This document shows positions 4,484 through 37,346 of a stretch of DNA of 38,723 nt, piece after piece (within the stretch, counting starts at the first letter, position 1; every line of letters starts with the position of its first letter). Made by a program: the position numbers and the translations under genes. The notes below the pieces were generated by a model. It did no database searches. It saw only the letters and a program-made list of their open reading frames with translations, and was not told the DNA's origin. The DNA is taken from sequence record SRR2962707_1591. The stretch is one strand, 5' to 3'.

Positions 4484-5737
4484 TCAAAAATACCTGGCGA
4501 TCCTGATCTGCACATAGTCGTCGTCGGCGATGTTGTAGACCGGATCACGCGTGGGAACGTCTGCGAAGAAATAAGCTTCGAGTGAAAGCCTGTAGTCCGT
4601 CGCGATCCGCCTTTCGCCGCGAAAACGGAAACCGAGCGCGCCTGTTTCCGTGTCGACGACTGCGCCGCCCAGCATGCTCGTCGTCGCGATGTCGTTCGCC
4701 GACCAGCGGAACGCCAGAAAGGCGTCGTTCTGATAGGGGTTTCGCTGGTTCATGCCGCGCGTGTCATAGGCATATTCGACGACCGCTCCAAGGTCGCCAT
4801 CGGTGTCGAATGCGCCGTAGAACGTGTACTCGATGCCGCCGGTCGCCGCCGCATAGTCGTCGCCGAGCTCCCGCCGCCCGAAGCCCTCCAGCTTGTAGAG
4901 CCATGCACCGATTGTGGCTTGAAGATCGACCGATGCCTGCTTCATCTGCGGGTAGTAAGGAGCGAGCACGAGGTTGCCACCACCGTCGAGCGCAGGTTGC
5001 AGGATAGGATCGCGCGCCGTCCCTTGAAAGTAGGACACGCCAAGGTCGAAGTCGCCGAAACTGTTGCCGTAGCGCGTGGCGAAGTCCGGGTGCCACTCTT
5101 CCGCGCCGCTTTCGTAGCGCGTCAGGTCGCGTTCGACCGGGATGTCGGTTGCCGGGCGTCCTTCGCGCCCCGGGAAGGTCCGCTCCCGGAAATAGGGCAG
5201 GAGAAACGCCTCCAGCGTGCCGAAGGAACGGACGGTCCGCAGCCGCATCATGGGCTGACCGAGTTTCACTTCCTGTTTGATCGGGTCTTCGATGAAGTCC
5301 GTCTGGTTCACCACGTCGACGAGATGCACTGCCTCCGTCACACCCCAGAAGACCTTGTCGAAGCCGATGCGGAATTCCCAGTCCTCTGCGTAATAGGCGT
5401 AGCGTGCCTCGCGAATATCCCAATGGCTGCGTTCGCCATCGCGCTGGTCGAGACGGGCAAAGGGAGTAAAGACGAAAGCCTGGTCGTTTCCGTCCCAGAG
5501 ATATTGAGCGGTCACTTCGCCGGCGAGCGAGAGCGTCGTGTCTTGCTGGCGCGAACTCGACGGACTTTGCGTAAAGACGCGAAGCTCAGGCTCGATATAG
5601 CCCCGCAGCTCGAACTCGCTGCCATGGGCCGGGCCGGTCATGGCGGAACCAAGCCCCGCGCAAAGCGCGAGCGCTGCTCTTCCCCCGATCGACGCCTTCC
5701 ACACCACGCGACAAATCCTGCAAAGCAAAGAATGCAA
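4484..5737 (-). CDS. Putative outer-membrane beta-barrel protein
   Basis: Signal-peptide-like region ending AHG/S, alternating aromatic beta-strands, C-terminal beta-signal (...IARYF). The true start may be slightly downstream. Confidence 0.75.
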   Translation of the reverse strand: MHSLLCRICRVVWKASIGGRAALALCAGLGSAMTGPAHGSEFELRGYIEPELRVFTQSPSSSRQQDTTLSLAGEVTAQYLWDGNDQAFVFTPFARLDQRDGERSHWDIREARYAYYAEDWEFRIGFDKVFWGVTEAVHLVDVVNQTDFIEDPIKQEVKLGQPMMRLRTVRSFGTLEAFLLPYFRERTFPGREGRPATDIPVERDLTRYESGAEEWHPDFATRYGNSFGDFDLGVSYFQGTARDPILQPALDGGGNLVLAPYYPQMKQASVDLQATIGAWLYKLEGFGRRELGDDYAAATGGIEYTFYGAFDTDGDLGAVVEYAYDTRGMNQRNPYQNDAFLAFRWSANDIATTSMLGGAVVDTETGALGFRFRGERRIATDYRLSLEAYFFADVPTRDPVYNIADDDYVQIRIARYF

Positions 5738-21250: not shown

Positions 21251-22246
21251 TCACGCGAGGGCGCCCTCGGCGCGCCATTGCGCCATCATCGCGCCGACCG
21301 ATGCCGCGAAGGCTTGCGGCTGGTCGAGCATGATGTGGTGCTGTGCGCCCGGCACCGTGAAGACGGGCCTTTCCGGTGCGAGACGGCGCAGGAAGTCGAG
21401 CTTTGCCAGCTCGTAGTCCTTGCTCTCAAGGCCGAACATGGTCGCGCTCGGGCAGGCGAGGTTCGCGTAGATCTCCGCGTGATCGTTGCCCATGCGCAAG
21501 CCGTTGAAAATCGAGGCGTCGAACTTCCACGTCCAGCCCGTTTCCTCGAAGGTCCGCTTGCCCCGCGTCTCGCCTTTCGTCACGGCGCGCAGGCTCAAGG
21601 GACCGATGTAATCCAGAATGAAGCCGTTGGCGCAGGGCTGTAGCGGCGCGAGGCGGAAGCGTGCCTTCGCCTCTTCGAGATCGCTGTAGATTTTCGTCGG
21701 GCGGCGTTCCTCGCCGTTGAGGAACCACTCATGCGCGTCGTCGGCGGGACGCACCGTGAAGTCGCACAGGAGAAGACCGCCGAGGCGCTCGCCGTAATGT
21801 TTCGCGGCGATCAGCGAGACAAAGCCGCCAAAGGAATGCGCCACCACCACCGGCTTCGGCCCGAGCCCCGCATTGAGCGCGACCTCGCCGATTTCGCGGG
21901 CAAAGGTTTCGCGCGAATAGTCCATGCGCCAGCCGCTGTCGCCCATGCCGCCGAGATCCATCGAGGCGACATTGTATTGGTCCGTCAGCAGCGGCGCGAT
22001 GAAGTGAAACCAGTGCGCATGTGCGCCGTTGCCATGCACGAAGAGGATGCCGGGACGGGCAGGGTCATGGTTTCCCCAGCGCAGATAATGGATATCCGTG
22101 CCGTCCACGTTGAGGCGGCGGCTTTCATGGGGCGCCGCGAGCGCCTGGCGGAACCAGAGCGGGCGGTGAAGAACGATGTCTTCCTCGGGCAGCGTGACAG
22201 GCGATGTTTCGGGCTGCCGCCCGGCGGTCCTGCAGGTCGTGTTCAT
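21251..22246 (-). CDS. Alpha/beta fold hydrolase
   Basis: HGNGAH oxyanion region, AHSFGG nucleophile elbow, HHIMLDQP catalytic His. Confidence 0.92.
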   Translation of the reverse strand: MNTTCRTAGRQPETSPVTLPEEDIVLHRPLWFRQALAAPHESRRLNVDGTDIHYLRWGNHDPARPGILFVHGNGAHAHWFHFIAPLLTDQYNVASMDLGGMGDSGWRMDYSRETFAREIGEVALNAGLGPKPVVVAHSFGGFVSLIAAKHYGERLGGLLLCDFTVRPADDAHEWFLNGEERRPTKIYSDLEEAKARFRLAPLQPCANGFILDYIGPLSLRAVTKGETRGKRTFEETGWTWKFDASIFNGLRMGNDHAEIYANLACPSATMFGLESKDYELAKLDFLRRLAPERPVFTVPGAQHHIMLDQPQAFAASVGAMMAQWRAEGALA

Positions 22247-22283: not shown

Positions 22284-22763
22284 TCAGGCGTCGGGCAGCA
22301 GCATTCTGAGCAGCGCCCGCGCGGACGTCGGCTTGCTGAGCCGCGGAATCTTGCCCGCTTCGCCCCGGAAAAGATGTGTGTCGTCGGCATGCGCCGTCGC
22401 GAAGACGACGTGCACGCCCGCCTCGCGCAGCCCTACCGCGAAGTCGAGCGAATATTCGCCATTGAGGTTCACGTCGACCACGGCCATGTCGATGCCGCCT
22501 TCCGCGGCAAGGTGCTCCGCATCCGCGAGCGACCAGGCGGGGCCGGCAATATCAGCGCCTGCCGCTTCGAGCGTCTGCGCGAGTTCCATGCCGACGAAGA
22601 ATTCGTCTTCCACCACGAGAACCTTGCGTCCCGCGAGGGGAAGGCTGCGCTCAGGCCCGCTGCCGCTACCGGAAACGCCGCCGCCGCCGCCCACGGTGCC
22701 GGAAAGCCACCACAAGGGGACAATGCTGATGATCCGATCGGCTATGCGTGTGCCTGTCCTCAT
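22284..22763 (-). CDS. Single-domain response regulator (FATGUY-like)
   Basis: VLVVED, phospho-Asp in VVDVNL, VVFATAH and SKP motifs; ATGA overlap with the kinase stop. The start may be downstream (GTG 22694). Confidence 0.88.
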   Translation of the reverse strand: MRTGTRIADRIISIVPLWWLSGTVGGGGGVSGSGSGPERSLPLAGRKVLVVEDEFFVGMELAQTLEAAGADIAGPAWSLADAEHLAAEGGIDMAVVDVNLNGEYSLDFAVGLREAGVHVVFATAHADDTHLFRGEAGKIPRLSKPTSARALLRMLLPDA

Positions 22764-24229
22764 GATTCTACGCCTCGCTCTTCCGGTATCTTGGCCGTTC
22801 TGCCGGTGGTACCCGCTTTTTCGGTATGCAGTTTCGGCAGAAGGATATGGATGGATGTTCCGCCCGACTTGTTTCTTGTTCGTCGTATTTCGCCGCCGAA
22901 TTGCCGCGAAAGATTTTCGATGATCATCGAGCCGAGACCGGTGCGTGTCGCCGGCTGGTCCATGTCGTCGTTGGGGCCGACACCGTCATCCTCCACCGCC
23001 AGCACGGGCACGCCGTCGTCTCCGAGGGCGAATGACGTGGCGATTGTTCCCTCCGCGCGATCATCGAAGGCATGTTTGATGGCGTTTGATACAAGCTCAC
23101 CCAACACAACCGCAAGCGTTGTGGCATCGCGGGAGGCGACGATGAGAGGCTCGAAATCGCTGGAGATGCCGATTGACGTGCCTTCGAGCGCCGAATCCGC
23201 GAGGTCCGTGACCACGGCCTGAAGCAGGCTGTCGACGCGGGTCGACTGCAGATCGTCGCCAAGGCGGAGCTTGCGCTGCGCCGTGCTGATGGTCTGAATG
23301 CGTCCACGCGCCGTTTCAAGCGCGGCGCGCGCCGATTCGTCGTCCACCTTCGCCTGCTGCATCCGGAGAAGGGAGGACACCATCGCGAGGTTGTTGCCGA
23401 CGCGATGCGTTACCTCGCGAAGCAGCAGCTCCACGCGGCCGCGCTCGTATTCGGCGCGGCCCGTTTCGGCTTCCGCCATCTCGCGGGCGATTTCCAGTTC
23501 CCTCGTTCGGTCGCGCACACGCGCTTCGAGTTCGTCGTTCAGCAGCGCGAGCTGGTGGCGGCGGCTTTCGACGGAGGCGAATTGCCGTCTCGTCAGTTGC
23601 GCGGACAGAATGGCGACGATGATCGTCGCTGCGAGCGCGCCGATGATCGAGGCGGAAAGCCATGTGCGCGTGGTGATGGTATCGGCCTGCCGTTCGATGA
23701 GGCGTCCGCGTTCGGCCTCCTGCGCCGAGGCCACGATATCGCGGATCTCGTCCATCAGGGCTTTGCCCCGGTCCTGATTGACGATCGCAACCGCGTCGGC
23801 GAAGCGGCCCTGGCGGCCGAGAGCGACCGTTTCGTCGATCACGGCGAGACGCCGTTCCGTTGCCTTGCGGAGCTGCGAGACCCGTACCGCCTGTGCGGAA
23901 TTGGACGGCACGCGGCTTTCAAGTCCGGACAGGCGCTGCCCGATCTGCTGGCGCATCTCTGTATAAGGTTCGAGATAAACCGCGTCCTGCGTCAGCAGGA
24001 AGCCGCGCTGGCCGATTTCGGCATCCTGAAGCACATTGAGAACGGCGCGTAGTTCCGCCCTTATCTCGAGCGTGTCGACGACCTCTTCGGCACTTGACCG
24101 GGCCATGTTCGAGAGCGTCAGGGCTGCTATGCCTGCTGCGAACAGCATCGCGAAGGCGACGGCCATCAGCCAGACGTTGACGCGGCGCATGGTTGCAACG
24201 TCAGCCTGTTCAGCCCCGAAAAGACGCAT
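22760..24229 (-). CDS. Sensor histidine kinase, CHASE3 plus HisKA_2 family
   Basis: TM-CHASE3 (DAEIGQRGFLLT, GKALMDEIR)-TM, H-box EVTHRVGNNL, ELVSNAIKHAF, DDGVG and GLG. Start uncertain (24190, 24229 or 24289). Confidence 0.92.
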   Translation of the reverse strand: MRLFGAEQADVATMRRVNVWLMAVAFAMLFAAGIAALTLSNMARSSAEEVVDTLEIRAELRAVLNVLQDAEIGQRGFLLTQDAVYLEPYTEMRQQIGQRLSGLESRVPSNSAQAVRVSQLRKATERRLAVIDETVALGRQGRFADAVAIVNQDRGKALMDEIRDIVASAQEAERGRLIERQADTITTRTWLSASIIGALAATIIVAILSAQLTRRQFASVESRRHQLALLNDELEARVRDRTRELEIAREMAEAETGRAEYERGRVELLLREVTHRVGNNLAMVSSLLRMQQAKVDDESARAALETARGRIQTISTAQRKLRLGDDLQSTRVDSLLQAVVTDLADSALEGTSIGISSDFEPLIVASRDATTLAVVLGELVSNAIKHAFDDRAEGTIATSFALGDDGVPVLAVEDDGVGPNDDMDQPATRTGLGSMIIENLSRQFGGEIRRTRNKSGGTSIHILLPKLHTEKAGTTGRTAKIPEERGVES

Positions 24230-24386
24230 AAACTTCTGAAGCCCCAACTGGCGACGGGCTAATGTGGCCCTGAACGTAGAAATCCCCATTCTGGAAAGAT
24301 AACAAAGCGCGGGGAAAACCCCTATAGCCGATAAACCTAAGCCTGTCTCTGGACCGGTGAAACCGGCGCATAAATGGGCTTTGCGG

Positions 24387-24415
24387 TTGACAGAAAGAGG
24401 GTCGCCGCATAGGTT
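24387..24415 (+). promoter_or_regulatory. Sigma70 promoter of rpmJ
   Basis: TTGACA-N17-TAGGTT about 90 nt upstream of rpmJ. Confidence 0.7.
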
Positions 24416-24505
24416 CCGCGCCAATTCAAGGGCGTTCCGGCATCGGGCCGGAGGCGGGGTGCATCCTTTGCGCCGATCCGCGGGAGCCCGAGCCGAGGTT
24501 GAGCC

Positions 24506-24631
24506 ATGAAAATTCGTAACTCCTTGAGATCGCTTCGGAATCGGCACCGGGACAATCGTCTCGTCCGCCGCAAGGGGCGCGTCTATATCATCAACAAGAC
24601 GAACCCCCGCTTCAAAGCCCGTCAGGGCTGA
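24506..24631 (+). CDS. rpmJ: 50S ribosomal protein L36 (zinc-free, YkgO/type B)
   Basis: Absent from the ORF track. Hand translation gives [41 protein letters not shown] (41 aa), with a GAGG RBS. Confidence 0.97.
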
Positions 24632-27229: not shown

Positions 27230-28261
27230 ATGAACCGGGCTTCCTTCATGACAACGTTCCTCATCGTCGCCGCCATATGCGCCGTCGCGCTCTTCATGTC
27301 GCTCGGCGCGGCGCGGGCGCAGACCATGTGGCCGCCTGATGGTTTCGTTGAACTCGATGGAGAATTCGCCGGATCGCGGCTTCACTATGTGGACAAGGGC
27401 ACGGCGAAGCCCGGCGTCGCGCCCGTCATTCTCATCCATGGCGCGAGCGGCAATCTGCGCGACATGGAACTGGCGCTGGTGGACAGGCTCGCGGTCAAGA
27501 CCCGCGTCATCGCCTTCGACCGTCCGGGTCATGGCTGGAGCGACCGCACTTCCAACCCCGATATCGCAAACCCCGCCGTTCAGGCCGCTGCGATCCGCAA
27601 CGGGCTGAAGAAACTAGGCGTCGAAAATCCCGTTCTTCTGGGGCATAGCTGGGGCGGCTCCGTCGTCTCGGCCTATGCGCTCGCGTGGCCGGACGAGATC
27701 GCGGGGCTGCTGCCGTTGTCGGGCGCGCTTTATCCGTGGCCGGGCGGCGTCGCCTGGTATCACTCGGTCGTGCGCACGCCGGTGGTCGGCTGGTTCTTCA
27801 CAAACCTTCTCGTCGCGCCGGCGGGCAAGCTCCTGCTCGACAAGGGTGTCGCCGCAAACTTCCATCCCGACAAGCCGCCGGAGAACTACGCGAAGAAGAC
27901 GGCGCTGCCGATGCTCTTTCGTCCCGCCGAGTTCCGCGCGAACAGCGAGGACACGGCGCAACTGAAAGCCTATCTCGCGGCGCAGAGTTCGCGCTATGGC
28001 GAGATCGCGGTGCCCACCATCGTCATCACCGGCAATGCCGACCACACCGTCTCGCCGAAGATTCACTCGTACCGGTTTCACAACGAGGTTTCAGGCTCGG
28101 AGCTCATCAAGCTCAAAGGCACGGGCCACATGCCGCATTATGCGCATACGGATGTTGTGGTGGACGCGCTTCTCCGCCTCGCGCGCGGCGAGAGGCCGCG
28201 CGCAGGCATGACGACGATTTACGCCGATGGAAAGATCGAGATGCCGGAGGCGGCGGACTAG
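27230..28261 (+). CDS. Alpha/beta fold hydrolase with N-terminal signal/anchor
   Basis: HGASG, FDRPGHG, GHSWGG, D in GNADH and GHM. Alternative start at 27248. Confidence 0.92.
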   Translation: MNRASFMTTFLIVAAICAVALFMSLGAARAQTMWPPDGFVELDGEFAGSRLHYVDKGTAKPGVAPVILIHGASGNLRDMELALVDRLAVKTRVIAFDRPGHGWSDRTSNPDIANPAVQAAAIRNGLKKLGVENPVLLGHSWGGSVVSAYALAWPDEIAGLLPLSGALYPWPGGVAWYHSVVRTPVVGWFFTNLLVAPAGKLLLDKGVAANFHPDKPPENYAKKTALPMLFRPAEFRANSEDTAQLKAYLAAQSSRYGEIAVPTIVITGNADHTVSPKIHSYRFHNEVSGSELIKLKGTGHMPHYAHTDVVVDALLRLARGERPRAGMTTIYADGKIEMPEAAD

Positions 28262-32294: not shown

Positions 32295-32313
32295 GCTTTC
32301 TTCTGCCCGCATA

Positions 32314-32342
32314 TTGCCGTGCCGCCCGCGCGCCTCTATCGT
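32314..32342 (+). promoter_or_regulatory. Candidate sigma70 promoter of gapR
   Basis: TTGCCG-N17-TATCGT, 41 nt upstream of the ATG. Confidence 0.55.
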
Positions 32343-32383
32343 CCCGGCCCTCACGGCAACAAGTATCAGTGGAGCGTCGCAAC

Positions 32384-32647
32384 ATGGCGGACGGCAATAC
32401 GCCTGCGAATACGGGCACGATCGCGCGGGACCAACTCCGGTCCATCGTCGAGCGCATCGAGCGTCTGGAAGAAGAAAAGGCGGCCCTCGCCAACGACATC
32501 AAGGAAGTCTACGCGGAAGCGAAGGGCAACGGCTTCGACACGAAGACGCTGCGCCAGGTGGTCCGCATGCGCAAGCAGGACAAGGCGGAGCGGCAGGAGC
32601 AGGAAGCGATCCTCGAACTCTATTTGAGCGCCCTCGGCATGATCTGA
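32384..32647 (+). CDS. gapR: DUF2312/UPF0335 nucleoid-associated protein (GapR)
   Basis: [17 protein letters not shown]...[26 protein letters not shown]...EAILELY.ALGM. Confidence 0.92.
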
Positions 32648-32711
32648 GGCGGGCTGAGCCTCCGGTTCTTTTTCCCGCGCGCGCCGCGTTAGGGCATACT
32701 CATCCTCAGGT

Positions 32712-34541
32712 GTGGCGAGGCGTATCCCGCAAGACGATACGCCCGGTGAACGGGAGTATCGCGTGAGGGAGGACGATCCCGGCGCGCAGGGCGAACCTCG
32801 AGGCAGCGCGGCAACGGGTAGCGGGACGGCGGACGGCAAGGCGCCGTCGTCGCGTCTCGGCGAAGCGGTGGATGCGGTCTATGGCTATGCCGCCGGCCGC
32901 TACAACTGGGAAGACCTGATCGGCTTCCTTGCGCATCTCGATCATGACAGCGAGGCGGGCGTCGCGGACCCGGGCGATCTCGTCTCGACGCTCGGCGCGC
33001 ATCTGCGCCGCGCCGACGAACTCGCGACCCGGCTTCATGCCGATGACGGCGCGGCGGAACCGGACTACGCGCTTCTCCTTCTCGGTCACGACCGCCACAT
33101 CGCGTCCTCGAACGAAGGCGGACGCGTGTTCTTCGGCAAGGTCTGCGCCTCGGTCGAAACAGGTAAACGGCTCTCTTTCCGCGATGGCGAGCACGCCGCG
33201 CTTTTCAAGGAAGCGCTGAACGGATTGCAGCAAGGCGGCGCGGCGGCGCCCGTCCTTCTGCGCCTTGCCGATGAGGAAGGGGGGACGGAGCTTCTCTGTT
33301 ATCTCGTGCGCGGCGAGAGCCTGTCGCCGGCCATGCTGCGCGCGGTCGAGATGGACGAAGACGAGCCGCGTCCGCTTTGCGCGCTTGTCGCCGCACCGCC
33401 GGAGGCGGGCGACGATGCGCTCGACATCTTCCGCAATGCGCTCGGCCTCACACCGGCGGAAGCGCGGCTCGCCGCGCGTCTTCGTTTCGGCCTGTCGCTG
33501 AAGGAAGCGTCGGAAGAGCTCGGCATTTCGGTCAATACCGCGCGCAACCAGCTCAAATCCGTTTTCGACAAGCTCGGCGTCAATCGCCAGGCCGATCTGG
33601 TGCGCCATTTGACGGAGCTTGCCGCGCTCGCCACCAGCATGCAGGGCGCAAGACGCGCCAAGGCGACCGTCACCGCCGCCGAGCGCCGCACCGTTGTCCT
33701 GCCCGACGGGCGCCTCATCGCCCTTCGCGACCTCGGTCAGCCGGACGGCTTCCCCGTCATTCTTCTTCCGCCGCTCGTGCAGTCGAGCCTGTTGCGTCCG
33801 CGTGAGGCGGAAATCGCGGGCGAGTGCGGCGTCCGGCTCGTCAGTGTCGAGCGTCCGGGCATCGGCCTGTCGACGCGCGACCCGCACGGCACCTACCGCA
33901 CCTTTGCAAACGACCTCGCTCATGTCGCCGATGCGCTCGGGATCGATCGCTTCGTTCTTCTCGGCTGGGCGTCCGGCGCGCCTTATGCGCTGACAGCCGC
34001 GTCCGTCCTCGGCCCTCGCGTGACGCGGCTCGCGCTCGCGACGCCGCGTCTCGGCTTTCGGTCGGACCTTGAGCCGACAACGCCCGCGCGCCAGTTCTTC
34101 GGCGGGCTGCGCCGTCACCCCTGGCTATTCGAGGCGGTCTTCTCGATCATGCGCGCAAAGCGCTCGCGCCGTTTCTTCCGGCCGATGATCCGCAACTTCC
34201 TCGAAACCTCCGAGCCCGACCGCCTGCTCTTCGAAACCGACACCTCGCTTCTCGATTGTTTCACCGACAGCTTCATCGAGGCGATCGACAGGACACACAA
34301 GGGCCTCGTCCAGGAACTCAATTTCTATTCGAAGGACACGCCCGCCGACGTCGCGGGCATTGTGCGGCCGCTTCTTGTCTGGCACGGCCTCGAAGACGAG
34401 ATGAACAGCGCCGAGGATGTGAAGCGCATGCTCGCGGGCGTTCCCGTCGAGGCGTTCAATTTCACGGCGGGCGACGGCCACATGGTTCTGTTCGCGCGGT
34501 TCCGCGAGGTTCTGATGCGCCTTGTCAATGACGGGCATTAG
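32712..34541 (+). CDS. Regulator: PAS-like region, LuxR-type HTH and alpha/beta-hydrolase fold lacking the nucleophile (paralog 1)
   Basis: HTH GLTPAEARLA...NTARNQLKSVFDKLGVNRQADLV; hydrolase LPDGR, ERPGIG, GWASGAPY, WHG..D and GDGH. Alternative GTG start at 32763 with GGGAG RBS. Confidence 0.88.
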   Translation: MARRIPQDDTPGEREYRVREDDPGAQGEPRGSAATGSGTADGKAPSSRLGEAVDAVYGYAAGRYNWEDLIGFLAHLDHDSEAGVADPGDLVSTLGAHLRRADELATRLHADDGAAEPDYALLLLGHDRHIASSNEGGRVFFGKVCASVETGKRLSFRDGEHAALFKEALNGLQQGGAAAPVLLRLADEEGGTELLCYLVRGESLSPAMLRAVEMDEDEPRPLCALVAAPPEAGDDALDIFRNALGLTPAEARLAARLRFGLSLKEASEELGISVNTARNQLKSVFDKLGVNRQADLVRHLTELAALATSMQGARRAKATVTAAERRTVVLPDGRLIALRDLGQPDGFPVILLPPLVQSSLLRPREAEIAGECGVRLVSVERPGIGLSTRDPHGTYRTFANDLAHVADALGIDRFVLLGWASGAPYALTAASVLGPRVTRLALATPRLGFRSDLEPTTPARQFFGGLRRHPWLFEAVFSIMRAKRSRRFFRPMIRNFLETSEPDRLLFETDTSLLDCFTDSFIEAIDRTHKGLVQELNFYSKDTPADVAGIVRPLLVWHGLEDEMNSAEDVKRMLAGVPVEAFNFTAGDGHMVLFARFREVLMRLVNDGH

Positions 34542-34699
34542 TTACCGCCGGACTAGATGTAATTTGCGTCTATAGCGGAGGCGGTCCCGTGTTTGTGGCG
34601 GCGCGGGCCGCCGTTTCCGATTTTCAGGCTGCTGTCATTCATCCTAAAGTGCGGGGCCGGGGCGGGGTGCTCCGGCAATCCTCAAGAGGGTGTCGGGGC

Positions 34700-36466
34700 G
34701 TGTCCGGGTTGAAAACGGGAAGCGGCGAGGGTGCGTCTGGCGAGCGCGCGGTTTCCGTTCGTCCCGATCTTGCCGTGGCGCTCGACGCCATCTACGGCTA
34801 TGCGACCGATCCTGAAAACTGGGAGGAGATGAGTTCGCTCCTCGATGAGATCGGCGCGGGTGCGGATATCGCGCCGGTGGCCGAGGGTATGCGTGCGCAT
34901 CTCTCCCGCGCGGAAAGTCTCGCGCGGCGGCTTCACGAGGCGGCGCCGGACGACAATGCCTCGCCCGCCTATTGCCACATGGTAATAGGCCGCGACCTGC
35001 GCATCGCTGACATATCGGACGCCGCGCGCGAGATGCTCGCACCGTTCTGCAAGCCGCTGCGCACCGGCAACCAGCTTCTCTTCACCGATCCCGAGAACGC
35101 GGCGCGCTTCCGCGCGCTTGCCGCTTCCGTGACGCAAGGTGCAGTCGGCCCCGTTCTGCTGCGGCTTGTACTGGAAGATGGCGAGGAGGCGGTCTTCGGC
35201 TATCTCGTCGCGGAGGCGAACCTGCCCGAACCGCTGCGGCGCCGGTTCGATCTTCCAGAGGAGGCGCGGCGTGGCGCCATCGCCTTTGTCGCTCCGGACC
35301 GGGAGGCGGCGGGCGATGCGACCCGCATGTATCGCGAGACTTTCGGCCTCACGCCCGCGGAAGCGCGCCTCGCCGCACATCTGAAGGATGGTTATTCGCT
35401 GAAGGAAGCGTCGGCGAAACTCAATGTCTCGATCAACACCGCACGCAACCAGATCAAGAGCGTGTTCGAGAAGCTCGGCGTCAACCGGCAGAGCGATCTG
35501 ATCCGCCATCTGACGGAGCTTTCGCAGCTCGCAACCTATATCAGTGCCTCGCAAGGTGAACCTGCCGAGCGTCCGGTGCCGGTCGTGTCCGGCGACGTGC
35601 CGCTCGACTTCGTGACGCTGCCCGATGGCCGCCGCCTCGCCTGGCGCGACTACGGGCGGCGCGATGGTCGGCCGGTTGTGCTGTTTCCGAGTTCGATCAG
35701 CAGTTCCCACATCTGGCAGGGAGAGGCGGAAGGGGCCTTGCGCGCGGGGCTTCGCTACATCGTGGTCGAGCGGCCGGGCACCGGCGCGTCCACGGCCGAC
35801 CCCGATCTCACCTTCGAGAGTTTTGCGTGCGACTTCGAACATTTCGTTGATGCGCTCGGCCTTGAGCGGTTCCGTCTCGTTGCGCGGTCATCGGCCTCGC
35901 CCTTCGCGCTCACCGCCGCCGCCCGTCTCGGGCCGCGCGTCGACCTCCTGATGCTCACCTCGACGCGGCTCGGCATTCCCGAAGGCAGCAAGACGAAGCC
36001 GCTCGGCATGCTCGGCGCATTCTTCAATAATCTTCGCCGTTATCCGTGGCTGCTCGATTCAACGCTCTTCATCCTGCGCGCGAAGATGTCGCGCAACTTC
36101 ATCCGCCCGCTCGTCTACAAATTCTTCGAGAACTCGCCCGCCGATGTCGAACTGATCCGCGCGACGCCCTCGCTTGAGGCGGCGATGATCCAGAGCACCA
36201 TGGAAACGGTCTCCCATACCTATGCGGGGCTGCTGCGCGAGTCGCAGCTTTATCTCGACGGCATCAGCCTCGATCTCGGCGGTCTCACGGCGCCCATCAT
36301 TGTCTGGCATGGCGAGGCGGATGGGGTCGTGCCGCTCGGCGAGTTGAAGCGCCGTCTCACCGAACTCAGGATCGAGCCTGCGGAAATGCGCACCTTCCCC
36401 GGCGACGGGCATTGCTTCCTCAACAAGCATTGCGACGAGATATTCGCCCGCCTAACAGCCCCCTGA
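34700..36466 (+). CDS. Regulator: PAS-like region, LuxR-type HTH and alpha/beta-hydrolase fold (paralog 2)
   Basis: Same architecture as the upstream gene, with ERPGTG, ARSSASPF, WHGEAD and GDGH. Start uncertain (GTG 34700 or 34589). Confidence 0.88.
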   Translation: MSGLKTGSGEGASGERAVSVRPDLAVALDAIYGYATDPENWEEMSSLLDEIGAGADIAPVAEGMRAHLSRAESLARRLHEAAPDDNASPAYCHMVIGRDLRIADISDAAREMLAPFCKPLRTGNQLLFTDPENAARFRALAASVTQGAVGPVLLRLVLEDGEEAVFGYLVAEANLPEPLRRRFDLPEEARRGAIAFVAPDREAAGDATRMYRETFGLTPAEARLAAHLKDGYSLKEASAKLNVSINTARNQIKSVFEKLGVNRQSDLIRHLTELSQLATYISASQGEPAERPVPVVSGDVPLDFVTLPDGRRLAWRDYGRRDGRPVVLFPSSISSSHIWQGEAEGALRAGLRYIVVERPGTGASTADPDLTFESFACDFEHFVDALGLERFRLVARSSASPFALTAAARLGPRVDLLMLTSTRLGIPEGSKTKPLGMLGAFFNNLRRYPWLLDSTLFILRAKMSRNFIRPLVYKFFENSPADVELIRATPSLEAAMIQSTMETVSHTYAGLLRESQLYLDGISLDLGGLTAPIIVWHGEADGVVPLGELKRRLTELRIEPAEMRTFPGDGHCFLNKHCDEIFARLTAP

Positions 36467-36611
36467 ACTTGAGGCTGTCCCCCGGCCTTAACCATCTCCC
36501 CGCCAATCCTTGGTCCATTTGCACTATTCTGACGGCCCCTCCGCGCCGCTACGACTCTTTGGCAGAAGACCCGGACATGGGGTGCCGGGTCCGATTCCAA
36601 AGGGGCTTACC

Positions 36612-37346
36612 ATGAAGATGAAAACCGCAGGCATTCTGGTCGCGGCCGCGACGCTGATCGCGGGCTGCCAGACAACCGGCATGGACCCGTCGGCGCTGAT
36701 CGGCGCCGCCACGCAGGTTGCCGCCGGCAGCGCCGCGCCGTCCGCCGCCAGCTACGCGGGCGCGCCCGCCTCTTCGCTCGCGCAGGATCCGGTCACCGTT
36801 GCCGCCGTGCAGCAGGCCGCCGCGCGCCAGGGCATCGCCATGACGCCGGACCAGGCGGCCACCGCCATCGCCATGCAGCAGTCGGGCGCGAGCAATGCCA
36901 GCCTTCAGAACGCCGCGCTTCAGCAGGCCGCCGTCAATGGTGGCGCCGCGCTTGCCGGTCAGCAGATCGCGCAAGCGGCGATGACCACCACGACGACCAC
37001 GGCCACCACCACGGACGCCGGTGCGGCGACCGCCGCTCTCGCGCCCGCGGGCACGCCGGACGGCATGAAGTCTTGCGAGCAGCTTTCGGCCGAGATCGCC
37101 CAGCAGCAGCAGGTGATCACGACCGCGAATTCGAGCTCCAGCAATGCGCAGATCGTCGATGCGGGCCTCGGCATCGCGCAGTCGGTCGGCCTCCACTTCG
37201 GCGGCTTCGGCCTTGGCGGCATCCAGGCGGCGGGGGCTGCGAGCAATGTCGCCAACCAGCAGAAGCAGGCCGCGGAGGAGCAGGTCCAGCAGGCTGAAAT
37301 CCGCGTGCAGGTGCTCTCCGGCATCTATCAAGGCAAGGGGTGCTGA
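36612..37346 (+). CDS. Ala/Gln/Thr-rich lipoprotein of unknown function
   Basis: Lipobox LIAG-C, Thr run, SCEQL..E helix, glycine-rich hydrophobic segment, C-terminal KGC. Confidence 0.85.
   Translation: MKMKTAGILVAAATLIAGCQTTGMDPSALIGAATQVAAGSAAPSAASYAGAPASSLAQDPVTVAAVQQAAARQGIAMTPDQAATAIAMQQSGASNASLQNAALQQAAVNGGAALAGQQIAQAAMTTTTTTATTTDAGAATAALAPAGTPDGMKSCEQLSAEIAQQQQVITTANSSSSNAQIVDAGLGIAQSVGLHFGGFGLGGIQAAGAASNVANQQKQAAEEQVQQAEIRVQVLSGIYQGKGC

Follow-up and report, generated by a model that had tools for sequence, protein, structure and literature searches.

Do two neighbouring regulators that share a hydrolase-fold domain, only one of which has a nucleophile in it, act as a dead receptor and an active enzyme on a common signal, or has the pair another origin and use? 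The question is raised by a 38,723-nucleotide stretch of record SRR2962707_1591 (the window, by which we mean the whole stretch). On its plus strand, a gene for a 592-residue protein (paralog 1, 32763..34541) is followed by a gene for a 588-residue protein (paralog 2, 34700..36466); we refer to them as the Ala-type and the Ser-type regulator, after the residue in the nucleophile column. Nucleophile loss is the norm in the family to which both belong. Taken as a whole, the locus appears best explained, with moderate confidence, by paralogous one-component regulators of which the Ser-type is primary and the Ala-type supplies a second input.

Domain architecture and catalytic site of the two regulators

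The raw open reading frames cover 32712..34541 (609 residues) and 34589..36466 (625 residues) on the plus strand. Their starts were reassigned to GTG codons at 32763, behind the ribosome-binding site (RBS) GGGAG (32752-32756), and at 34700, according to the RBS and start codons that stayed conserved when the upstream regions of 8 Ala-type and of 17 Ser-type orthologs were aligned. The resulting forms are identical to database entries P0001 and P0030, the only family copies among the database matches on the window's 3.70-Mb contig. Full-length identity between the two proteins is 42% (E 8e-134), and Pfam matches, a structural model and a PAS-like N-terminal domain bore out the common layout of tandem paralogs that the first-pass annotation had described. 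In paralog 1, N-terminal helices and a PAS-like domain (approximately residues 34-215) precede a LuxR-type helix-turn-helix (HTH) domain (approximately 229-282), a linker and an alpha/beta-hydrolase fold (approximately 305-590). The three domains of paralog 2 are laid out in the same way.

Both C-terminal halves exceed the Pfam gathering score for Abhydrolase_1/_6 (PF00561/PF12697; 44-50 bits vs cut-offs of about 26), and Foldseek matched the hydrolase domain to many hydrolases with probability 1.00. The GerE/LuxR HTH model (PF00196) scored 21.0 and 21.1 bits in paralogs 1 and 2 (E 2.6e-4 and 2.4e-4; gathering score 23.5), covering 54 of 57 model positions. PF00196 is also annotated on many close homologs in precomputed lists, and there are weak NCBIfam matches to LuxR-family regulators. 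The full-length AlphaFold model of paralog 1 (mean predicted local distance difference test score, pLDDT, 79.9) begins with three helices, after which come a domain of mixed alpha/beta type, a four-helix HTH at 231-293 (helices 231-241, 246-253, 257-271 and 276-293), a disordered linker (286-304) and a hydrolase domain that carries a large helical cap (441-523). The predicted recognition helices are nearly identical, reading NTARNQLKSVF in paralog 1 (33534..33566) and NTARNQIKSVF in paralog 2 (35435-35467). In general, the paralogs of one genome are 65-73% identical in the HTH, where the recognition helix reads NTARNQ[LI]K, vs 28-40% in the other domains.

To characterize the N-terminal domain, the three-helix segment and PAS-like core of paralog 1 (32862..33467) were folded alone (pLDDT 83.3). 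All top Foldseek matches were PAS, LOV, PYP or phytochrome-PAS domains (E about 1e-3, probability 0.99-1.00). A profile search against the PDB found the DosP PAS domain (E 7.2e-5), with histidine-kinase, Aer2, FixL and DcuS PAS domains weaker. VIA-align aligned PAS domains at Z 6-7.1, which lies within the background range of the tool, with a root-mean-square deviation of 3.4-4.1 over 91-107 residues; the PAS domains of the LuxR-type regulators 3mqo, VqmA and EL222 gave Z 5.8-5.9. From these models we regard the domain as PAS-like at the level of the fold. A Pfam scan at E<=0.1 returned HTH and alpha/beta-hydrolase models only, and in it the autoinducer-binding domain of LuxR receptors for acyl-homoserine lactones (AHL) was not found. 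In the protein atlas, the N-terminal domain and the lipoprotein discussed below fell solely into unnamed clusters, at 0.88-0.93.

The catalytic motifs read LLPP, GWASG, WHGLEDEM and GDGH in paralog 1, and LFPS, ARSSA, WHGEADGV and GDGH in paralog 2. Accordingly, the triad columns hold Ala403, Asp545 and His573 in paralog 1 and Ser397, Asp541 and His571 in paralog 2. The elbow G401-W-A403-S-G405 of paralog 1 (33963..33977) has Ala403 (GCG, 33969-33971) in place of a nucleophile (Ser, Cys or Asp). Its acid motif lies at 34380..34403, with Asp545 at 34395-34397, and His573 (34479-34481) sits inside GDGHM (34470-34484). In paralog 2 the nucleophile column of the elbow A395-R-S397-S-A399 (35882..35896) holds Ser397 (TCA, 35888-35890); Asp541 and His571 are encoded at 36320-36322 and 36410-36412. 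The HG oxyanion motif is present in neither protein, being replaced by PP in paralog 1 and PS in paralog 2, and the elbow of paralog 2 departs from G-x-Nu-x-G.

Three comparisons fixed this register. The serine of the closest solved enzyme, 9wlv (G-W-S-G-G, E 3.9e-27), falls in the column of Ala403 and Ser397. Canonical family members from Gallionellaceae (HG, G-Y-S-A-G, D, H) use the same columns, with the elbow 10-mer ungapped. In the AlphaFold model of paralog 1, a strand at 397-402 passes directly into a helix from residue 403. Together they excluded a register shift that would make Ser404 the true nucleophile. In arylesterase 3ia2, the counterparts of the Asp and His columns of both paralogs were the stretches HGDGDQIVP and PH, which presumably hold the catalytic Asp and His of that enzyme. 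The motifs were therefore as the first-pass annotation had read them in every detail, including Ala at the elbow of paralog 1, and its GWSGGGPY-type enzymes found a counterpart in 9wlv (GWSGGGPHAL). Its view of paralog 2 as an active enzyme did not gain in the same way. With HG missing and the elbow A-R-S-S-A non-canonical, no evidence for activity was found. The HG motif is not strictly necessary in all hydrolases.

Nucleophile loss, pairing and selection in the family

A word-indexed search returned 108 proteins, 88 of which matched the query broadly (coverage 47%-100%); nearly all named proteins among the 88 are from Parvibaculum. The search also listed a tandem-type copy (P0022) from P. 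lavamentivorans DS-1, a cultivable member of the genus. The nucleophile column of these close homologs holds Ser in 53, Ala in 31, Leu in 3 and Asp in 1, and all 29 homologs with a GWAS[GS] or AWASG elbow in this search set have Ala there. At E<=1e-30, an exhaustive profile search found 2195 representatives, of which the top 150 (all E<=1e-64) were taken further. Together with the two window proteins they gave 152 rows, and the 133 with all three domains were used for family counts and the tree. At 50% identity the family has at least 133 clusters of full length, and its members were placed by their loci in Alpha-, Beta- and Gammaproteobacteria.

Ser is absent from the nucleophile column in 98 of the 133 representatives. 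The column reads Ser 35, Ala 31, Leu 19, Met 13, Gly 11, Thr 8, Val 5, Cys 5, Ile 4, His 1 and Trp 1; a complete Ser/Asp/His set occurs in 33/133 and Ala/Asp/His in 16/133. A FastTree phylogeny divided the 133 into a mostly canonical half of 55 rows and a mostly nucleophile-less half of 78 rows, which holds the Parvibaculum clade, and at least 13 changes between Ser and other residues are needed on this tree. The most conserved positions across the family are E233, T259, K270 and Q276 of the HTH (each 132/133) and the scaffold motifs of the hydrolase fold, not the triad. Because the catalytic residues have been lost in most of the family, the hydrolase-fold domain is, in most members, most likely a small-molecule-binding or regulatory module and not an enzyme.

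Relatives with PAS and HTH domains but without the hydrolase domain were also seen, either as two or three genes in tandem or beside full-length members (L044, L045, L055, L056, L063, L068 and L071). In one of these loci, L045, the opposite strand also encodes a stand-alone canonical hydrolase (GFSGG) from this subfamily. Across the wider family, genes are repeatedly found duplicated locally and in split or fused form.

We surveyed pairing in 73 family genomes and assigned classes by motif; 29 contain a member at E<=1e-40. A GWASG copy together with a Ser-type copy was found in nine genomes (eight with the genes adjacent on one contig, one with the genes split across two contig ends), the window being the tenth case. 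Three genomes have AWASG and TRSSS copies on separate contigs, and two have an Ala-type copy (GSASA) alone, as a looser threshold confirmed. The remaining 15 have the Ser-type alone, which means that the syntenic slot is empty (eight loci shown) rather than that the copy is absent genome-wide. In those eight loci the Ser-type gene lies directly 3' of gapR, the slot occupied by the Ala-type gene in most tandem genomes. The pairing and asymmetry anticipated by the first-pass annotation were thus found in part: every Parvibaculum GWASG or AWASG copy has a Ser-type copy in the same genome (12 genomes and the window), but the converse fails, with single Ser-type copies, and loss of Ser is widespread across the family (35/133 keep it). 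Outside Parvibaculum, nucleophile-less copies stand alone.

Because Ser-only genomes nest inside clades with otherwise paired members, the Ala-type copy must have been lost several times. Two Ser-only loci, L011 (approximately 5520-5545, 5' of its B gene) and L018, carry TCAATGCCGG(A/G)CATTAA between gapR and the Ser-type gene. This stretch, almost a palindrome in its own right (AATGCC-G-GGCATT), is similar to the final codons and stop of the Ala-type gene (GTCAATGACGGGCATTAG); it may be the scar of an Ala-type gene deletion.

In a maximum likelihood tree of 54 full-length genes, an Ala clade (GSASA, AWASG, GWASG) is sister to a Ser clade (GRSSG, ARSSG, TRSSS, ARSSA, ANSSS), with support of 99 for the joining branch, and the outgroups carry Leu. 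This sister relationship indicates that the duplication is old, and on the phylogeny the pair stems from inside the Parvibaculum lineage. Fitch parsimony on the 133-row tree placed Ser at the root, Ala at a 74-tip subgroup and Ala at the common ancestor of paralogs 1 and 2. The nucleophile codon is always GCN for Ala and always TCN for Ser, one step apart, and since third positions vary inside each clade, each state is held by selection. These results are suggestive of a history in which paralog 1 keeps the ancestral Ala and the lineage of paralog 2 regained Ser by one GCN-to-TCN change. The asymmetry proposed earlier, in which one copy died, is probably the reverse.

Furthermore, the Ala-type hydrolase domain is not decaying and is the more constrained of the two. 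Its ratio of nonsynonymous to synonymous substitution rates (dN/dS; Nei-Gojobori, six genome pairs) was 0.09-0.21 vs 0.14-0.30 for the Ser-type, and across all Ala-type domains it was 0.06-0.31. Identity in the hydrolase domain between genome pairs was 72-87% for Ala-type copies and 75-87% for Ser-type partners of one type. Across the split between types B (ARSSA) and C (ANSSS), Ser-type partners were 48-51% identical in this domain vs 72-79% for the Ala-type copies of the same genomes. The B/C divergence points to a burst of change in the sensor domain of Ser-type copies, perhaps because its specificity shifted. Types B and C occupy the same slot and never co-occur.

A candidate operator and leader hairpin at the lipoprotein gene

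The gene 3' of the Ser-type regulator in the window (36612..37346, plus strand) encodes an exported lipoprotein with a signal peptide and the lipobox LIAGC and with no family match; a gene for an exported protein follows the Ser-type gene in 15/15 aligned loci. The region before it contains three conserved elements on the plus strand. Block 1, TGGTCCATTTGCACTATTC (36511..36529), is near-invariant and operator-like. It is followed by a conserved -10-like hexamer, TACGAC (36550-36555), and by a leader hairpin (36568..36591) around the invariant core CCGGACATGGGGTGCCGGG (36571-36589), recognized by conservation and covariation. Judging from this conservation, we infer that block 1 is an operator of a promoter whose transcript would start, according to the hexamer, approximately 43 bp 3' of the block 1 centre.

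Block 1 lies directly 3' of the Ser-type gene in 21 loci and the window, and 19 of those loci and the window also have the hairpin core. It follows every Ser-type gene of clades B, C and E, including clade E copies with an unlinked Ala-type partner. It is absent 3' of AWASG and GRSSG genes, and the Phaeomarinobacter gene has it with two mismatches and no hairpin core. In five of five genomes searched, block 1 is single-copy at that site (reversed-pattern control, 0), and genome G027 has it with two mismatches together with one unrelated three-mismatch match. A search of the window for TGGTCCATTTGCAC with up to three mismatches gave 4 matches vs 2.4 expected, of which only the exact one at 36511 counts. 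The lone Ala-type genes at L100 and L101 have the same lipoprotein family downstream, and the position of block 1 is taken there by TGGTATATCTGTACCA, a homologous 16-bp palindrome with perfect 5-bp arms that is identical to block 1 at 14 of 19 positions.

The hairpin core was compared among 18 sequences and has 10 pairs, 4 of them with compensatory changes. Paired cells amounted to 94.4% vs 87.2% in shuffles, and the covariation score was 0.295 vs 0.142; 0 of 500 shuffles reached the observed value in either case, and slid registers gave 21-46% pairing. The loop and core are invariant (ACAUGGGGUG inside CCGG...CCGGG), the compensatory changes lie in the outer pairs, and the hairpin has no Rfam match (the loci with the hairpin are the window, L001, L003, L005, L007, L009-L012, L015-L020, L023, L024, L026, L027 and L031). 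In an Rfam scan of the entire window nothing reached the gathering score. The hairpin could be an element of RNA stability, processing or protein binding.

A related inverted repeat, CCGGGGCGGGGTGCTCCGG (34657-34675; general form CCGG-N-GGGGTG/ATGGTG-N-CCGG), lies in the leader of paralog 2, within the intergenic region between the paralogs (34542..34699). It is present in 10/15 loci, between the conserved -10-like hexamer of that gene (TAAAGT, 34645-34650) and its RBS-like AGAGGG, in the orientation of the lipoprotein-leader hairpin and with a similar loop. No compensatory changes were found among the 10 sequences. A loose pattern of the leader element matched 4 times in the window vs 0.85 in shuffles (maximum 5), a count that is not significant by itself. 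The leader of paralog 1 has a hairpin-like inverted repeat of its own (32719-32726/32736-32743), which recurs at the same position in L001, L004, L005, L007 and L009; its sequence differs in every genome and is unrelated to the Ser-type leader element.

The order gapR, [Ala-type], Ser-type and lipoprotein gene is conserved, with gapR immediately 5' of the regulator slot in most Parvibaculum loci. In the window, gapR (PF10073, E 1.1e-36) covers 32384..32647 on the plus strand, with a terminator-like hairpin after it (32646-32662). Each regulator gene has a separate conserved -10-like element and RBS. A scan for the sigma-70 consensus detected no promoter in the intergenic regions concerned, and the -10-like hexamers cited here were recognized by conservation alone. 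Among public sequencing runs, none from RNA was found to contain 32300-36600. The upstream neighbours (pyruvate kinase, a glycerate-kinase-like gene, N-formylglutamate amidohydrolase, DUF1244 and gapR) gave no hint to the ligand.

A small exported protein with a signal peptide, rich in Gly, Pro and Lys, is encoded after the AWASG copy in L008 (9900-10380) and L014 (9842-10335). The stretch GCGTCATTTT.T.GCCATA.GC.GTTGCTC is kept between the two loci 5' of this gene, which may be a separate target of the Ala-type regulator. Elsewhere in the window there are two stand-alone alpha/beta-hydrolase genes, at 27230-28258 (plus strand) and 21251-22243 (minus strand). The former is syntenic approximately 5.5 kb 5' of the regulator slot in many related loci; it scored only about 30 bits against the family profile and so is not a close relative. 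A gene at 22760-24544 (minus strand) encodes a histidine kinase with CHASE3 and HisKA_2/HWE-type domains, and no adjoining response regulator was noticed among the open reading frames scanned.

Competing explanations and known hydrolase-fold sensors

In the explanation that we favour, both proteins would be one-component transcription regulators of a large Pseudomonadota family, in line with the earlier description of one-component-type regulators with a hydrolase-fold, sensor-like domain, which our results support. They would bind block 1 as dimers and activate the lipoprotein promoter. Paralog 2 would be the primary local regulator, with the exported lipoprotein gene as its probable, activated target. 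The hydrolase-fold domain, perhaps together with the PAS domain, would bind a small molecule that controls DNA binding or activation. Paralog 1 most likely acts on the same operator class, because its nucleophile-less state is probably ancestral, it is under strong purifying selection and its recognition helix is nearly identical. It would do so as a second input channel, through competition or mixed dimers, and would bind its ligand without turning it over. The Ser-Asp-His set of paralog 2 was probably regained, and the protein may or may not hydrolyse its ligand.

Several observations weigh against this explanation. The GerE matches of both window proteins are 2.4-2.5 bits below the Pfam gathering score. 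Many of the genomes are incomplete metagenome-assembled genomes, which bears on the Ser-only class. The ancestral Ala was obtained by parsimony, and the FastTree topology used for it has support below 80 at 52 of 130 inner branches. The Ser, Asp and His strictly kept across clades B-E would also suit a paralog 2 that is truly catalytic. A block-1-like site was seen 5' of neither regulator gene, so that the convergence of paralog 1 on the lipoprotein promoter is argued solely from the common recognition helix. The TGGTA-N6-TACCA palindrome class is not enriched near family genes outside L100/L101 (11 in 1.08 Mb vs 21 shuffled). Relocated AWASG copies adjoin a different exported-protein gene that has no block 1, which suggests that Ala-type copies can have their own targets. 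Finally, we infer DNA binding, ligand binding and the link between regulator and target from conservation and adjacency.

The first-pass annotation had suggested that the two proteins may form a sensing pair, possibly heteromeric, with the dead paralog 1 as receptor for a lipid- or ester-type signal that the active paralog 2 would cleave. Part of this proposal stood, as the Ala state is conserved, selected and, in Parvibaculum GWASG/AWASG copies, always accompanied by a Ser-type copy; selection holds both states, and the near-identical recognition helices make mixed dimers on one operator conceivable. What argues against an obligate pair is that the Ser-type occurs alone in 15 genomes, with the syntenic slot empty in 8 loci, that the Ala-type occurs alone in two, that a lone Ala-type copy adjoins the same lipoprotein gene in G071 and G072, and that the two copies are unlinked in three genomes. 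Moreover, the widespread loss of the nucleophile is typical of the family, and each gene has its own promoter-like elements. We therefore consider such a pair unlikely. Another explanation, that paralog 1 is a decaying duplicate heading for loss, is contradicted by the selection data. Its repeated loss, with Ser-only genomes nested in paired clades, and the sequence like its 3' end in L011 and L018 might suggest decay, but the frame is intact in 8/8 aligned tandem loci, dN/dS is low in every domain, Ala403 is kept with synonymous codon variation, and across the B/C split the Ala-type hydrolase domain is more conserved than that of its partner. This explanation is highly improbable.

A more plausible, still tentative, alternative is that paralog 2 is a trigger enzyme or hydrolysis-dependent receptor, whose DNA binding would be switched by cleavage of the signal or by a covalent intermediate as in D14/KAI2, with paralog 1 limited to binding. 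Ser, Asp and His are kept in all clade B, C, D and E loci and in 53/88 close homologs, the Ser codon is TCN with synonymous variation, real esterases are the closest solved relatives, and the Ser clade forms an island among Ala, Leu and Met relatives, which suggests a selected change. Nevertheless, HG is replaced (PS, RS or QS), the elbow is A-R-S-S-A or A-N-S-S-S instead of G-x-S-x-G, P0062 (ATASA), a close relative of paralog 2, is back to Ala, and a small residue at a tight turn could toggle between Ala and Ser without catalysis. A bolder and rather improbable version holds that paralog 2 rebuilt a working triad from a pseudoenzyme ancestor by one Ala-to-Ser change and became a hydrolysis-dependent receptor in the D14/KAI2 manner, fused to a DNA-binding domain and acting at the same promoter as its bind-only paralog. 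If it were true, a single signal would be read by the cell in two channels, one that binds it and one that binds and destroys it. It is likewise doubtful that the hydrolase-fold domain binds no small molecule and serves as a scaffold for oligomerization or protein-protein contacts, leaving the PAS-like domain as the real sensor. Such a role would fit the family-wide conservation of the domain, which is mostly in RPGxGxS, WHG and the elbow glycines, the free replacement of triad residues, even by Leu, Met or Trp, and the existence of PAS and LuxR HTH alone as a widespread, self-sufficient architecture, as in the short relatives. The domain is, on the other hand, constrained like the domains flanking the HTH (dN/dS 0.09-0.30), and B/C partners diverged sharply just there (49% vs 72-79% for the Ala-type in the same genomes), as expected of a shift in ligand specificity.

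Several known systems resemble parts of this architecture. In regulators such as VqmA (7dwm), EL222 (3p7n) and a Burkholderia LuxR-family PAS protein (3mqo), a PAS-fold sensor (PAS or LOV) is followed by a four-helix LuxR/GerE HTH in one polypeptide. Here the HTH is internal, a hydrolase-fold domain of approximately 290 residues comes after it and there is an extra three-helix N-terminal segment; the similarity is at the level of the fold only. The closest solved relative of the hydrolase domain is 9wlv from Microlunatus sagamiharensis (named pimeloyl-ACP methyl ester carboxylesterase in the sequence file; Foldseek E 2.7e-15), whose elbow GWSGGGPHAL matches GWASGAPYAL of paralog 1. This protein, in contrast, is a stand-alone enzyme of 290 residues with Ser at the elbow, and the family-specific cap (residues 424-495 or so of paralog 1) is unaligned. 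The plant receptors D14/KAI2, which hydrolyse their ligands, and GID1, which does not, are hydrolase-fold small-molecule receptors that keep the HG motif, and KAI2 paralogs subfunctionalize after duplication. They share with our proteins the use of the fold in a receptor role, without a close sequence relationship, and they signal via partner proteins, without a fused DNA-binding domain. PqsE of P. aeruginosa, of hydrolase type, modulates the LuxR-type RhlR independent of catalysis. Its fold is that of a metallo-beta-lactamase, and it acts in trans on a LuxR receptor that binds AHL, whereas the window proteins contain a fused alpha/beta-hydrolase fold.

[quoted passage not shown] As described there, RsbQ is made as a protein of its own from an upstream gene and needs its catalytic triad, and the output domain, joined by a coiled coil, is a PPM phosphatase, a histidine kinase or a diguanylate cyclase (GGDEF); nine class-specific residues mark the PAS domain of RsbP, and in the text the terms helix-turn-helix, LuxR and DNA-binding occur 0 times (PMC3183031). 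Compared with this account, our proteins share the combination of hydrolase and PAS domain as the input of a signalling protein, but the hydrolase is fused C-terminally, the output is a LuxR-type HTH and the nucleophile is usually absent (98/133). No RsbQ entry was among the best 60 solved-structure matches of the hydrolase domain. None of the systems compared (PAS/LOV-LuxR regulators, the RsbQ-PAS module and the plant receptors) has the PAS-LuxR-hydrolase fusion. Full-text literature searches, which covered main texts, found no paper on it, and in an Actinobacteria census of LuxR architectures, searched by term, the word hydrolase occurs 0 times (PMC3466318). The earlier statement that LuxR-hydrolase fusions as such are known thus found no support in the literature searched; what exists are automatic database names, e.g., pimeloyl-ACP methyl ester carboxylesterase/DNA-binding CsgD family transcriptional regulator.

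What is new here is the paired Ala and Ser paralogs, the probable regain of Ser, and a defined candidate operator, hairpin and target. Plants have well-known hydrolase-fold receptors, and in bacteria RsbQ is the main example; in this family the fold is fused directly to the output of a transcription factor. The Parvibaculum pair amounts to a natural experiment, in which adjacent Ala-type and Ser-type copies have a DNA-reading helix in common and one sharply defined candidate promoter. In a non-pathogenic bacterium, and by standard genetics and biochemistry, it makes testable whether catalysis is needed for signalling, whether a lost nucleophile can be regained and what these domains sense.

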